DNA of 64,000 nt from a virus (taxonomy: Duplodnaviria; Heunggongvirae; Uroviricota; Caudoviricetes): IMG/VR virus record IMGVR_UViG_2713896905_000004, positions 31,599 through 95,598 of that record. One strand, 5' to 3'. Positions 39,322 to 42,022 of the stretch are shown here, piece by piece. The position numbers and the translations under genes are program-made. Below the pieces are notes generated by a model. It ran no database searches, had not been told where the DNA came from, and was given only the letters and a program-made list of their open reading frames with translations. How positions within the stretch are numbered: position 1 is the first letter of the stretch; the number at the start of each line of letters is the position of its first letter.

Positions 39322-39601
39322 TCCACCCAGGCGTGCTGAATGTCAGATATAATCGGCATACTCAAATCACTCCTAACGATATGAGTCATCACCAGAAAAT
39401 CAGGATTAATGCGCCGGACTCTTCCCGGCTGTCACACCGAATCGCCAGGATGGTGAATCCCTTTACCCGAGAAACAACAAACGGTGGCTTGCACATTCCG
39501 GCTACCTGGTTCGTTGCCTGAGCTAGGGGCAAGGTTCCCCCCTTTTAACGTCACCAGACCGCTAACGACGCATGTGCCAGACGCCGTGTTACAACCAAAT
39601 A

Positions 39602-39677
39602 TGGTGGCCCCTACCGGACTTGAACCGGTGACCGTGCGATTATGAGTCGCCAGCTCTAACCACTGAGCTAAAGGGCC
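39602..39677 (-). tRNA. tRNA-Ile (anticodon CAU, ileX-like)
   Basis: 76-nt cloverleaf GGCCCTTTAGCTCAGTGGTTAGAGC...CTCATAA...GGTTCAAGTCC...CCA. Confidence 0.8.
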
Positions 39678-39682
39678 GGATT

Positions 39683-39790
39683 ACTGTTTCCTGAGTGCTT
39701 CTATGACGCCAGCAATACCGCCTACAACTATGCCAGCAATGACAACGAGAACAATTGGATGCTTGTCAGCAAAATCCCAGAAGCCCATCA
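39683..39790 (-). CDS. putative 35-aa membrane peptide
   Basis: MGFWDFADKHPIVLVVIAGIVVGGIAGVIEALRKQ. Confidence 0.3.
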
Positions 39791-39951
39791 CTGATCCTTA
39801 GAAGCTGTTTTTAATATCGGCCATACCAATGTTACAGCTACTGCTACCAACGCCCCGTCGGATAAAACCGACAGGATTGTGCTGGTGAAATCCACCAGCA
39901 CAGATAGCACGAGAAAAACCAAAGCCAGAATTAGACGTGCTTTTATAACCA

Positions 39952-40377
39952 TCAGATATACTGTTCCAGTGGCAATTGAAGAGCCTGGGCAATTTTCTTC
40001 AATTGCTCCTGCTCTTCTGCCCCAATGCCATCCTGGTCAGCAATATCAATGCATAGGCACAGAACATCTACCGCATCATTAGTTCCAGACACGTCAGCCA
40101 GTTCACGTAAAGCCTGGGCATTCGCTCGGCGCGGCGAGGCTTCATATTGAGCGCGAATATTGGCGCTCATCTGGGCAATTTCACCGGAGAACGGCGCAAA
40201 GGCAGGAAGTGCTGCAATGGTTTTTTCCAATACTGCAATTTCTTTCGCATCGCAGGTGCCGTCAGAGTATGCAATGGAATATGCGCCCCAGACAGTCGCT
40301 TCCACCGCATCACGGTTTTCCATCTTCTTGACTCCGCCAGCCGCTTTGCGGAATTTCTTTTTGAGAATGCCGAGCAT
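39952..40377 (-). CDS. TerB-domain protein (tciA-like)
   Basis: 141-aa TerB-like fold; position in the ban operon. Confidence 0.6.
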   Translation of the reverse strand: MLGILKKKFRKAAGGVKKMENRDAVEATVWGAYSIAYSDGTCDAKEIAVLEKTIAALPAFAPFSGEIAQMSANIRAQYEASPRRANAQALRELADVSGTNDAVDVLCLCIDIADQDGIGAEEQEQLKKIAQALQLPLEQYI

Positions 40378-40549
40378 TTATTAACCTCATTACTGGTTGG
40401 GAAATAAGGTTGCGGTGCCGGGTGCTTCCCGGTGTCCTTTAGCTGGTTATCCACCGTGGACGGGGAAATAAGGAGAAATAATGGACAGATATAACCATTT
40501 CCCCGCGTGCGCTTAGCCGCATTCACCGCAACGGAAAGAGCATTCCTGG

Positions 40550-41100
40550 TGGACCTGTAGATTGGGATATGAACCCGTTACAGGAGAATGCTCTTACCTG
40601 TTACGTGCTCCGTTTCGTGGAGCTAACGGCGGGTGATCGGGCCGCACCAGACTGGACTTATTTCAGCGTTATGCTCATGCCAGAGAATCAAACTGTGATG
40701 GTCGGTGCTGAACTCCGACACAGGGTTGTAGCAAGCCCCGCAAAGCGCGCACTACTGTAGTTGCGGCACATCAGCCTGTGCATTCACCACAATGTTGAGA
40801 ACACTGGTTGTCACGCTGCAACGCAACATTTATTCGTAGATTGGGATATGACCCCGTTACGCCAGTGTTCTCAACGTTGTAGTGCCGGTTACGGTTCCGG
40901 CCAGGCCTCTTCCTCAACGGGGTGTTCTCCATACGGACTACCGTTTATTGGTCGTTCCTGCGGTTTATGTTGTGAAGCCAGATGCTTATCTTCTGGTTGC
41001 TTCAAAGAGCTGCACTTCATCACAACGGTAAGAGCATTTATGGCTCGCATCGCGGGAAAAAGCCCACGGTAGAGAGTCGAACTCTACAAATGCTCTTACC
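40550..41100. repeat. cluster of short direct and inverted repeats, possible tRNA remnants
   Basis: gggatatgaMcccgttac at about 40563, 40846, 41491; atgctcttacctgtt at about 40585 and 41085; 17-bp inverted repeat at 40791 and 40862. Confidence 0.4.
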
Positions 41101-41108
41101 TGTTGTGT

Positions 41109-41184
41109 TGGTGCCGGTTAACGGGATCGAACCGCTGACCATTCGCTTACAAAGCGACTGCTCTACCAACTGAGCTAAACCAGC
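41109..41184 (-). tRNA. tRNA-Thr (anticodon UGU)
   Basis: 76-nt cloverleaf with anticodon loop TTTGTAA and GGTTCGATCC T-arm. Confidence 0.8.
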
Positions 41185-41188
41185 AATT

Positions 41189-41275
41189 TGGTGGGGAGTG
41201 ATGGAGTCGAACCACCCGAGTCGCAATGACAGTAGATTTACAGTCTACCCCGCTACCCCTACGGACTAACTCCCC
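41189..41275 (-). tRNA. tRNA with long variable arm, anticodon GUA (Tyr-like)
   Basis: 87 nt, anticodon arm GTAGA-CTGTAAA-TCTAC; D-arm irregular. Confidence 0.45.
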
Positions 41276-41280
41276 TAAAG

Positions 41281-41357
41281 TGGCGATGGTGGGTGGATTC
41301 GAACCACCGACCGACAGCTTAGAAGGCTGCTGCTCTATCCTACTGAGCTACACCACC
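41281..41357 (-). tRNA. tRNA-Arg (anticodon UCU)
   Basis: 77-nt cloverleaf, anticodon loop CTTCTAA, T-arm GGTGG-TTCGAAT-CCACC. Confidence 0.7.
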
Positions 41358-42022
41358 ACTGTGCCGGGTACGTCTCCGGCGAGGGCTTCCACCTCCGTAT
41401 GCTTTTCGGCGCACCGCGCCCTGGCTGCAATTCGGTAACAGGGGATGCATAACCCTGGCTTCCAGCGTGATTAGCGCCTTCAACATGACGGGATATACCC
41501 GTTACAAGAAATTCTCCCAGGATGCCATTAAGCAATGGCTGTTACGCGGGAAGGACGCAACAGGTAAGGGCGCTGACCAGAAAGACCTGACCCTTCTCAT
41601 TCATCTGGTTAATCACACCAGCGCCCTTACCTGTTGTGCCTCCCCGTTCCCTAATACACAGACGGGGACACTCTGCGGTCGATTTTTTGACGGGGGACGA
41701 CTCATACCCCGTGGCGTCTGGCTTCTTAGGCCGCTACCATCATCAGATCATCGTTTGCATTTACTTTAATGGTCAGTTTCTAAACCGCCGCAAAGTCGCT
41801 AACCATGACGAAAACCCTGAAAAAAACGCCCACCCGAAGATGGGCAAACTGGAAGCTCGTAACGCACTTCGGTGTTGCCACTTAGGCGTATGGTCAACCT
41901 GGCAACTCGGCGTCATGAGGGGGAAGGAGTCACTACCCCGCCATACTTGCCGCCGCGCCTGTCGCGGCTAACAGCTAAATCGCTCTATAAATCACGATTC
42001 ATTGAGGCGATATTACACTAAT

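Follow-up and report, generated by a model that had tools for sequence, protein, structure and literature searches.

The window, that is, the whole 64-kb stretch of DNA that was analysed, is a P1-like phage-plasmid. By homology to P1, its tRNA region belongs to an operon repressed by C1, the ban operon, of which it forms the long untranslated leader. In the P1 annotation this leader is preceded by Pban and the C1 operator and followed by tciABC, trnI, and ban. The locus follows the order known from P1 (NC_005856, 68.6–71.3 kb, with trnA for Asn, trnT for Thr, and trnI for Ile): Pban/C1 operator, leader, tRNAs, tciABC, trnI, and ban (Table 1). A sequence-only reading had put the tRNA genes in the ban operon and had given Asn, Thr, and Ile tRNAs for P1; both statements agree with the P1 comparison. 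The identity to P1 is 95% overall and 100% from window position 41032 down to 40300. Unlike P1, the window has a tRNA-Tyr insertion, tRNA-Arg(UCU) instead of tRNA-Asn(GUU), and a different interior in hairpin A.

Table 1. Features of the ban leader locus, in the direction of ban transcription (positions in the window).
Feature	Position	Strand	Evidence
Bivalent C1 operator and Pban promoter region, start of the ban operon	42007..42044	-	Inverted repeat I5 containing ATTGCTCTAATAAATTT; homologous to P1 Obanab/P1ban
Intrinsic-terminator-like hairpin and T7 tract, end of the 'dicF-like' region of P1	41827..41846	-	Terminator scan
Hairpin D, ahead of the tRNA array, perfect stem of 18 bp, no GGTGAAT 3′ flank	41558..41636	-	Inverted repeat I3; R1; z = -8.0
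tRNA-Arg(UCU), chimeric	41281..41357	-	ARAGORN, Rfam tRNA model, RefSeq
tRNA-Tyr(GUA), class II, 87 nt, long variable arm, A73, encoded CCA	41189..41275	-	ARAGORN, Rfam tRNA model, RefSeq
tRNA-Thr(UGU)	41109..41184	-	ARAGORN, Rfam tRNA model
Hairpin A, loop with T-arm-like hairpin	41023..41105	-	Inverted repeat I9; R1 60.5 bits, E ~1e-13; z = -7.2
ORFs corresponding to P1 upl (40569-40760) and plp (40761-41072), antisense to hairpins A-C	40569..41072	+	ORF scan; P1 annotation
Hairpin B, loop motif ACGGGGTCATATCCCAATC	40790..40879	-	Inverted repeat I2; R1 52.2 bits; z = -5.7
Hairpin C, loop motif as in B	40529..40603	-	Inverted repeat I13, direct repeat D6; R1 55.5 bits; z = -4.4
STnc100-like structured domain, closing helix UGCGGUG...CACCGCA, adjoins tciA upstream	40411..40530	-	RF02076 sub-threshold match
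tciA, TerB-domain protein, 141 aa	39952..40377	-	Pfam TerB 28.4 bits vs cut-off 24.4; P1 tciA
tciB (DUF3927, 54 aa) and tciC (36 aa)	39681..39952	-	Pfam DUF3927 E 7e-31; P1 annotation
tRNA-Ile2 (CAU), directly upstream of ban, between tciC and ban	39602..39677	-	ARAGORN, Rfam tRNA model, P1 trnI

An untranslated leader of ~730 nt contains three long hairpins (A, B, and C), and a fourth (D) precedes the tRNAs. As the sequence-only reading had noticed, this part of the minus strand (~40527–41037) contains no ORF as long as 60 aa, the longest having 53 aa. The entire untranslated ban leader measures ~1.6 kb. The 'dicF-like' label used for P1 was rejected as a DicF identity, there being no Rfam DicF match in 39300–42100 even at E ≤ 10. 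The domain that precedes tciA shares a 5′ GGUGAAU and a 3′ CACCGGGA.GCACCCGGCACC with the STnc100/PasD prophage sRNAs (fold z = -2.8). Its match to RF02076, a prophage-borne family, is partial (model positions 31–147 of 206) and reaches 33.4 bits (E 6.8e-5) against a gathering score of 47, so that membership in STnc100 was rejected.

The tRNA genes

ARAGORN finds four minus-strand tRNAs, with the anticodons CAT, TGT (Thr), GTA (Tyr), and TCT (Arg), and the Rfam tRNA model agrees. A tRNA was called on the RF00005 gathering score of 29 bits together with a cloverleaf fold, and all four genes lie above this score (64.7, 64.1, 41.9, and 70.0 bits for CAT, Thr, Tyr, and Arg, respectively). The four genes and anticodons proposed earlier thus hold, including the 87-nt candidate, which both programs detect. 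The latter had been called merely Tyr-like, and while the GUA tRNA is real, the wording turned out to be an understatement: bacterial tRNA-Tyr ordinarily has a long variable arm, and the gene shows the class II features GUA, A73, a variable stem-loop GUC-AUUGC-GAC, and the end ...CCCC-A-CCA. Its D-stem is weak in the ARAGORN fold. Compared with P1, the gene is a 92-nt insertion, and its region is 81% identical to an Asn-Tyr block of T4-like phages.

The assignment of the CAU tRNA to isoleucine was likewise upheld. RefSeq labels identical copies tRNA-Ile, and chromosomal tRNA-Ile genes share 89.5% identity with the gene; among the matches listed that cover most of the query, all are tRNA-Ile, the chromosomal ones at 86.8–90.8% identity. 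P1 trnI is annotated as 89% identical to ileX. To judge from these similarities, the CAU tRNA is tRNA-Ile2 with an Ile-type body, nearer to ileX/ileY than to the Met tRNAs; it would read AUA once TilS has changed C34 to lysidine, a modification that is presumed here.

RefSeq E. coli plasmids carry the identical Arg gene in 69 cases (as tRNA-Arg) and the identical Tyr gene in 272 cases (as tRNA-Tyr), and therefore the tRNA set is a known variant of the P1 family. The suggestion of a remodelled locus is right with respect to P1, but the locus is not unique, other P1-like plasmids having such tRNA sets. The remodelled set is one of a menu found among these plasmids, and in itself it is routine, the combination being already annotated on hundreds of them. 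P1-like plasmids with Arg-Tyr-Thr-Ser-Ile arrays (such as CP043746, CP042632, and NZ_CP027309) match the window exactly or almost so in their Arg, Tyr, and Thr genes. In contrast to the window, which has a P1-type 227-nt segment between hairpins B and C, they carry a tRNA-Ser(UGA) module there.

The tRNA-Arg gene is a chimera of the acceptor and T arms of a P1-type tRNA-Asn and the D-loop and anticodon arm of an Arg-type tRNA. Compared with the Asn gene of Asn-Tyr-Thr arrays, it is identical at 14 of 15 positions at the 5′ end and at all 29 at the 3′ end, but at only 20 of 33 in the middle; when Arg(UCU) genes of other phages are used instead, 27–28 of 33 positions match in the middle and ~60% at the ends. 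The identity set of E. coli ArgRS comprises A20, C35, and U36 or G36. The gene carries A20, C35, U36, and G73, with the D-loop AGUAGGAUA and the anticodon UCU, i.e., all the ArgRS identity positions A20, C35, and U36 are present, by which its identity is predicted only. The Arg-type D-loop is absent from the parental P1 Asn gene. The gene would have arisen from a tRNA-Asn of the P1 family by replacement of positions ~16–48, from the D-loop to the variable loop, most simply through recombination in the stretches of the D and T arms that are universally conserved. It would then be a clean natural case of a change of identity from Asn to Arg with the acceptor and T arms kept. The chimera also illustrates a route by which phage tRNA repertoires diversify.

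The earlier reading had pointed to a comparison of codon usage with the decoded codons. In 46 ORFs of the window, AGA, AUA, and ACA are 2.8, 2.5, and 1.8 times as common, respectively, as in E. coli, and Tyr codons, at 1.0–1.2 times, are not enriched. Asn codons are likewise not enriched in the element. Since AGA, AUA, and ACA are commoner than in E. coli, codon supply appears to be the simplest role for the Arg, Ile, and Thr tRNAs. As the Tyr codons are not enriched, tRNA-Tyr may instead substitute for host tRNA-Tyr depleted by a defence system. A T5-family tRNA-Tyr restores phage growth in the presence of retron-Eco7 PtuAB, which depletes tRNA-Tyr (PMC11555353). It is a tentative extension of this idea, and on balance an unlikely one, that the tRNAs as a whole (Tyr especially, and Asn in relatives) serve chiefly to make up for host tRNAs lost to colicins or to defences that target tRNA. 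The rescue by the T5-family tRNA and the usage of Tyr and Asn codons are in line with it, but the Arg, Ile, and Thr genes are well explained by codon supply, and P1-like elements exist for most of the time as plasmid prophages with a repressed ban operon.

A hairpin family that extends from P1 to lambda

The direct and inverted repeats and the T-arm-like hairpin noticed earlier are real, the inverted repeats being four long hairpins with folding z-scores from -4.4 to -8.0. The typical layout is CAAC, a stem of 17–26 bp, a variable interior, GTTG, and then usually GGTGAATGC. The T-arm-like element in the loop of hairpin A reads GTAGAG-TTCGACT-CTCTAC, and a 25-nt direct repeat is common to the loops of B and C. 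The stem of hairpin B is unlike those of A, C, and D in sequence, with pairing retained (arms GTTGAGAACACTGG/CCAGTGTTCTCAAC in B vs. GGTAAGAGCATT/AATGCTCTTACC in A). In P1-like loci a hairpin begins 3 nt past the CCA of tRNA-Thr and of tRNA-Ser, as hairpin A of the window does behind tRNA-Thr.

A covariance model, R1, was built from members of the family outside P1, with no P1-like sequence included, and membership was defined by CAAC, a stem of at least 13 bp, GTTG, and a match to R1. Within the 64-kb window R1 matches only A, B, C, and D (E ~1e-7 to 1e-13). The scores of A, B, and C are higher on the transcribed strand, and the orientation of D, which lacks the 3′ GGTGAAT, is ambiguous (37 bits on one strand, 34 on the other). 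As to covariance-model matches in the repeat region, a question raised by the sequence-only reading, Rfam has no family over the hairpins and yields only the sub-threshold STnc100 match, and R1 matches all four of them. At gathering thresholds Rfam finds nothing in this region of the window beyond the four tRNAs, and at E ≤ 10 the extras are the sub-threshold STnc100 match and miRNA- and tmRNA-like noise.

A search with a 15-mer from the stem retrieved many viral contigs, with a paired 3′ arm in 68 of the 125 matches. The family is common to the late leader of lambda and to many contigs of lambdoid and other temperate enterobacterial phages. The lambda copy (J02459, within 44758–44930) follows directly after tR′; the stem-loop itself (ACAACAGGTAAGAGCATT...AGTGCTCTTTCCGTTGTG, ~44788–44870) lies inside 'orf-64'. 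As in the window, the hairpin of lambda is found in an untranslated leader shortly past an early terminator. Unlike the window, lambda has one copy and no adjoining tRNA, and the stems of lambdoid phages have a U·U mismatch at a position that is paired in P1-type stems. The family is present in at least one in five complete E. coli genomes; in K-12 a copy lies in Qin. In the E. coli RefSeq search no annotated feature lies under the hairpin among the matches listed, no Rfam family overlaps the hairpins at the 14 lambdoid loci checked, and a literature search for the arm sequences found none. A family that is absent from Rfam thus extends from P1 to lambda.

Among 35 members outside P1, 93.9% of the cells are paired, compared with ~42% when the partner is slid. 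Both sides have changed in 10 of the 17 stem pairs, and none of 500 shuffles scored as high. In an anchored alignment with symmetric scoring, the sense strand has 89 G·U and 39 A·C pairs (p = 1e-5). Whenever a tRNA lies within 500 nt of a hairpin, the two have the same orientation; this holds for all 96 such tRNAs in P1-like loci and for all 13 elsewhere. The G·U excess and the shared orientation of the tRNAs argue for selection on the transcribed strand. As judged by the compensatory changes and the matches to R1, the repeats are a conserved hairpin family under structural selection. The arm sequence is strongly conserved as well, and so are a bulged A and the U·U mismatch (in 24 of the 35 members). 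Such conservation suggests that the family spread recently or that it has a partner more specific than RNase III. Hypervariable interiors lie between these conserved arms.

The sequence-only reading had offered decayed tRNA copies or structured RNAs for the stretch between the tRNAs and the TerB-like gene. Structured RNAs are indeed found there, namely hairpins A–C and the STnc100-like domain. That the repeats are non-functional debris of tandemly duplicated tRNA genes now seems very unlikely. The T-arm in loop A does look canonical, T-arm-like hairpins occur in 9 of the 69 interiors of the family, several hairpins are preceded by short strings that resemble tRNA (e.g., ..CCGGCAC..), and a 12-nt segment between A and B matches the 5′ part of tRNA-Tyr. 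The segments between the hairpins, however, have no significant similarity to tRNA when multiple testing is taken into account (two weak matches, p ~0.01–0.017, in 42 comparisons), and the Rfam tRNA model yields no further match at E ≤ 10. Compensatory changes across unrelated phages and a strand-specific G·U excess are unlike decaying sequence. The earlier observation is confirmed, and its interpretation is partly supported.

The opposite strand bears the ORFs upl and plp, and it could be supposed that it encodes Upl and Plp (a putative lipoprotein) and that the hairpins are incidental. Both are annotated in the records of P1 and RCS47, the plus-strand ORFs of 63 and 103 aa exist, and a 279-nt deletion in SJ46 happens to preserve the frame. 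However, they have no Pfam match and no sigma-70-like promoter was found. The window and P1 have different plp C-termini, in keeping with their different hairpin A interiors, and the P1 version reads into the opposite strand of tRNA-Thr. Variable sites are distributed over the codon positions as 7:4:8, with no third-position excess among a mere 19 sites. A tRNA-Ser module replaces upl in P7, D6, and many plasmids, and among the RefSeq plasmid matches listed only tRNA features are annotated over the region. A conserved frame, third-position bias, and independent annotation, by which a coding gene is recognised, are thus absent from upl and plp. We consider that the two ORFs are probably spurious and that the region is better read as structured RNA; the likelihood that they are genuine genes appears to be slight indeed. 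A corrected annotation would strip spurious ORFs from many records.

Proposed processing stems and possible recombination joints

We lean moderately towards the view that the hairpins would act as RNase III-type processing stems and, secondarily, as recombination joints, the Arg, Ile, and Thr tRNAs serving codon supply. The stems would be sites of double-stranded RNA processing, for which RNase III is the obvious candidate. The strong conservation of the arms speaks against it, as this enzyme needs little primary sequence. The hairpin in the late leader of lambda may be one of its cut sites, as Daniels et al. (1988) reportedly describe. The substrate of RNase III is a double-stranded stem of ~22 bp, about two helical turns (PMC6212723). 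The predicted stems of ~17–26 bp fit this size, and RNase III is therefore a candidate. Cutting of the stems would yield a leader RNA, a tRNA precursor, small structured RNAs, and a tciABC-trnI-ban mRNA. The stems would flank these products as in rRNA operons, where stems flank the mature RNAs. In both rRNA operons and T7 early RNA, long stems of a length suited to RNase III bracket stable RNAs, including tRNAs. In contrast to these, each candidate stem of the window belongs to a local hairpin whose interior varies and whose arm sequence is strongly conserved. A preprint on the P1vir/hfq transcriptome makes no mention of leader processing. If the hairpins are processing sites, they would provide a route for the release of tRNAs and small RNAs from long phage leaders, as well as a reason for recombination hot spots in such leaders.

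Arms that are nearly identical in all copies may let the hairpins serve as joints for homologous recombination. This could be why relatives of P1 differ by whole cassettes, i.e., presence or absence of Tyr, presence or absence of Ser(UGA), and alternative hairpin interiors. Breakpoints of homology among these relatives coincide with hairpins, and the SJ46 deletion of 279 nt lies between the loop repeats of B and C. These breakpoints and the hypervariable interiors between conserved arms are also what would be expected if the hairpins worked mainly at the level of DNA, as recombination sites or module linkers (integron attC-like, or by simple homology) for the exchange of tRNA and small-RNA cassettes, with the RNA structure as a by-product. 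Furthermore, accessory cassettes of several phage types are bordered by hairpins, and CAAC...GTTG with its bulge superficially resembles the R″/R′ boxes of attC. Nevertheless, G·U pairs outnumber A·C pairs and the tRNAs are strictly co-oriented, both of which indicate that selection has acted on a single, transcribed strand, and the core boxes are unlike the attC consensus (RYYYAAC/GTTRRRY). Integron attC identity was rejected on the latter ground, and a primary function in DNA seems unlikely. Recombination is regarded as a real secondary consequence, not as the selected function.

Another interpretation takes the hairpins for antitermination modules like those of rRNA operons, in which the 3′ arm UGCUCUU(U/A) would mimic boxA, recruit NusB/NusE, and shield the ~1.6-kb leader from Rho. 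The commonest 3′ arms of the family have 8 nt in common with the boxA of rrn (TGCTCTTT) or of lambda nutR (GCTCTTAC), and long untranslated RNAs require boxA in order to escape Rho (PMC7665894). However, no hairpin of the window comes within 3 mismatches of the 13-nt consensus, and the boxA-like string is base-paired and is freely changed in the family if pairing is kept. Membership in boxA, which is single-stranded (consensus TGCTCTTTAACAA), was rejected, the 8-nt partial match lying inside the stem. We regard the antitermination role as highly improbable.

Within the processing view, a simple cleavage site does not account for the modules found in the loops, where T-arm-like hairpins and the motif ACGGG..CATAWCCCAATC recur across the family. 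A broader proposal, speculative and quite unlikely in our estimate, is that the hairpins are uncatalogued and widespread phage RNA modules, in which a stem scaffold holds interchangeable interiors (T-arm mimics and ACGGG-N-CAUAW-CCCAAUC) that might attract factors which process or bind tRNAs, or serve as decoys. With the boxA-like arms, these modules would make up a system resembling that of rRNA operons, by which long non-coding phage leaders would be transcribed, protected, and diced into tRNAs and small RNAs. The ACGGG-N-CAUAW-CCCAAUC motif is conserved, and its closing stem covaries.

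The four tRNA genes and their setting

Positions 39300-42100 of the window are 95% identical to phage P1 across 98% of their length. The P1 annotation identifies the counterpart as the ban operon, which runs from the C1-controlled promoter Pban through a 'dicF-like region', trnA (Asn), trnT (Thr), tciA (a TerB-domain protein), tciB, tciC and trnI (Ile) to ban; on the other strand, the interval from trnT to tciA holds two hypothetical ORFs, upl and plp. The 'dicF-like' label is unsupported by Rfam search. The leader is untranslated, begins at a repressor-controlled promoter and crosses an early terminator. 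Upstream of tciA lies a 120-nt segment similar to the prophage small RNA STnc100, at 33.4 bits and so below the threshold of 47; a GTG-initiated ORF of 119 aa, which overlaps tciA in another frame and reaches 150 nt into the STnc100-like leader, is probably spurious. P1-type genes, C4 antisense RNA and sok also occur in the window. The two C4 genes are separate and about 50 kb apart, one having an isrK-like RNA next to it, the other the a1/b1 target element; only one c4 is known from P1. The sok antitoxin RNA implies a hok/sok-type addiction module on the element.

Coordinates of the RNA genes, hairpins and associated features
Feature	Position	Strand	Remarks
CAT tRNA	39602-39677	minus	ARAGORN, Rfam tRNA model
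tRNA-Thr(TGT)	41109-41184	minus	ARAGORN, Rfam tRNA model
tRNA-Tyr(GTA)	41189-41275	minus	87 nt; ARAGORN, Rfam tRNA model
tRNA-Arg(TCT)	41281-41357	minus	ARAGORN, Rfam tRNA model
Early terminator	41827-41846		
Hairpin D	41558-41636	minus	folding z-score -8.0
Hairpin A	41023-41105	minus	folding z-score -7.2
Hairpin B	40790-40879	minus	folding z-score -5.7
Hairpin C	40529-40603	minus	folding z-score -4.4
D/A long-range stem	41092-41122 with 41541-41571		31 nt, 74% complementary
ACGGG-N-CATAW-CCCAATC motif	40836-40860, 40557-40581		also at comparison loci, e.g. L130, L137, L160
119-aa GTG ORF	40167-40526	minus	probably spurious
C4 antisense RNA genes	12421-12508, 62517-62602	minus	
Elements beside C4 genes	12533-12610, 62670-62722		
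sok RNA	58520-58694	minus	89.7 bits
E. coli K-12 Qin hairpin	NC_000913.3 ~1641153-1641229 (comparison locus L233, 5154-5230)	minus	36.4 bits

Over the full 64 kb ARAGORN calls four tRNAs and no more, each on the minus strand, and all four pass the Rfam tRNA gathering score. The sequence-only reading had assigned their anticodons and taken the CAU gene for tRNA-Ile; the RefSeq labels of identical sequences bear this out. Sequences identical to the CAT gene are labelled tRNA-Ile (chromosomal tRNA-Ile genes are 89.5% identical), the Arg gene matches tRNA-Arg on 69 plasmids at an identity of at least 95%, and the Tyr gene is annotated as tRNA-Tyr on 272 plasmids. The last has the lowest Rfam score of the four (41.9 bits), which reflects a weak D-stem as well as the long variable arm. 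Bacterial tRNA-Tyr is of the class II form, in which a long variable arm is normal, so this gene, earlier called 'Tyr-like', is an ordinary tRNA-Tyr.

The array is Asn-Thr-Ile in P1, SJ46 and RCS47, Asn-Thr-Ser(UGA)-Ile in P7 and D6, Asn-Tyr-Thr-Ile or Arg-Tyr-Thr-Ser-Ile in other P1-like loci, and Arg-Tyr-Thr-Ile in the window. Alignment with P1 shows the Tyr gene as an insertion of 92 nt. Phage Ro157c2YLVW has the same gene after an Asn gene, and the Asn-Tyr block shares 81% identity with an Asn-Tyr-X block of T4-like phages. The Arg gene is chimeric. Compared with the Asn(GUU) gene found in Asn-Tyr-Thr arrays, it agrees at 14 of its first 15 and all of its last 29 positions, and at only 20/33 between them (positions 16-48); other phage Arg(UCU) genes give the reverse pattern (about 60% for the ends, 27-28/33 for the middle). 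The exchanged section supplies the UCU anticodon and a D-loop containing A20, the ArgRS identity elements. The locus is remodelled relative to P1, as had been suspected, but the arrangement is common and already annotated; the tRNA reading was essentially right and the set is ordinary. A tRNA-Ser(UGA) found by ARAGORN in P7 (comparison locus L007, NC_050152, 2349-2435) is absent from the record, the D6 record remarks that the amino acid of its tRNA-Ser was uncalled by tRNAscan-SE, and the SJ46 record (L009) has hypothetical CDSs across tRNA-Asn and tRNA-Thr.

Compared with E. coli K-12, the 46 long ORFs of the window are enriched in AGA (2.8-fold), AUA (2.5-fold), ACA (1.8-fold) and UCA (1.7-fold), the last being the codon of the tRNA-Ser(UGA) carried by relatives of the element; Tyr and Asn codons show no enrichment. 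The Arg, Ile and Thr tRNAs are therefore consistent with codon supply, and the Tyr tRNA is not. A phage tRNA-Tyr counters retron-Eco7, which depletes host tRNA-Tyr (PMC11555353), and a role of this type is plausible for the tRNA-Tyr of the window.

A conserved hairpin family in the leader

The leader at 41108-40378 contains three long hairpins (A, B and C), and a fourth (D) lies upstream of the tRNAs. All are built alike: (C)ACAAC and, frequently, a bulged A, then at least 13 bp of stem, a variable interior, GTTG and, except in D, (T/C)GGTGAATGC. In P1-like elements a hairpin starts 3 nt past the CCA of tRNA-Thr and tRNA-Ser. Successive hairpins have complementary GTTGTGGTG and CACCACAAC flanks. 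The 3' arm of D can alternatively pair with the 5' arm of A, in a stem that would enclose the entire Arg-Tyr-Thr array and resembles an rRNA processing stalk.

The hairpin is a selected RNA structure, because covariation, an independent model, strand bias and tRNA orientation all speak for it. In an alignment of 35 family members, none of them P1-like, 93.9% of cells are paired vs. about 42% with the partner column slid; both sides change in 10 of 17 stem pairs, and none of 500 shuffles reaches any observed measure. The covariance model built from this alignment recovers A (60.5 bits), C (55.5), B (52.2) and D (37) and nothing else in the 64 kb, with A, B and C scoring 12-34 bits higher on the transcribed than on the opposite strand. 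Scored symmetrically, the sense strand holds more G·U than A·C pairs (89 vs. 39). The tRNAs no more than 500 nt from a hairpin all share its strand (13/13 outside P1-like loci, 96/96 inside).

What had been read as tRNA-like debris is a conserved, uncatalogued hairpin family of presumed processing type, not decayed tRNA genes. The repeats are mostly not decayed copies: the inter-hairpin segments have no significant similarity to tRNAs, and the Rfam tRNA model matches nothing in the region beyond the four tRNAs. The T-arm-like hairpins noticed earlier are real: in 9 of 69 distinct interiors a TTCRANY loop is closed by four or more base pairs (2.6/kb vs. a background of 0.065/kb, with none on the antisense strand). 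A second interior module, (A/G)ACGGG-N-CATAW-CCCAATC, is common to loops B and C and many lambdoid copies, has a covarying closing stem (CGTA/TACG, GCGTG/CACGC, GGCGGCA/TGCCGCC, CCGGA/TCCGG) and is covered by no Rfam family.

The ORFs upl and plp, antisense to A-C, are probably annotation artefacts. Neither has a Pfam match, their 19 variable sites fall 7:4:8 by codon position, and the RefSeq plasmid matches listed have only tRNA features over this region. The Plp C-terminus varies with the interior of hairpin A and in P1 reads through tRNA-Thr antisense, and upl is replaced by a tRNA-Ser module in many relatives.

Probable recombination joints and possible processing

Homology blocks between the window and ten relatives start and stop at hairpins. 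P1 is 100% identical from 41032 downward and differs in the interior of A; in Ser-carrying plasmids the homology breaks off exactly behind B and resumes at the 3' arm of C; SJ46 has lost 279 nt between 25-nt direct repeats of loops B and C (window 40836-40557), a deletion that yields a hybrid B/C hairpin. Recombination has evidently used the shared arms as joints, and a DNA-level recombination signal is one alternative to RNA processing as the role of the hairpin.

As an RNA structure, the hairpin has a modelled stem length that suits RNase III, and on the preferred reading the stems would be sites at which this enzyme cuts the leader into pieces. Sites where RNase III processes the late RNA of lambda were reportedly described in 1988; presumably they lie in this hairpin. 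Further alternatives are a scaffold for protein-binding loop modules and a boxA-like anti-Rho element. The latter draws on the commonest 3' arm, TGCTCTT(T/A) (e.g. 41027-41039 and lambdoid copies), which has 8 nt in common with rrn and lambda nutR boxA; the window hairpins do not match the full 13-nt consensus, which argues against it.

Occurrence beyond P1-like elements

A search with the stem 15-mer matched many IMG/VR viral contigs, with a paired 3' arm in 68 of 125 matches, and Rfam scans of the window region and lambdoid loci found no family for the hairpin. Phage lambda is among the matches. Its hairpin (J02459, ~44788-44870) lies directly after the 6S RNA terminator tR', within the dubious 'orf-64', so that the promoter, early terminator and hairpin of the window leader parallel pR'-6S-tR'-hairpin. 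In lambdoid late leaders the hairpin sits between Q and the holin gene. Elsewhere it heads reverse-oriented accessory cassettes that lie between terminase and portal genes, and tRNA-Arg(UCU) comes straight after it in two of them; some copies adjoin CI-like repressor genes. In some non-P1 phage contigs (L020, 7032-7180; L120, 3038-3190) the GTTGTG end abuts the tRNA-Arg(UCU) of such a terminase-portal cassette.

Among 5426 complete E. coli genomes, at least 1041 contain the 3' arm together with its flank, and among the matches listed no annotated feature lies beneath any 3' arm match. E. coli K-12 itself carries a diverged, unannotated copy that lies between cspB and essQ of its Qin prophage.
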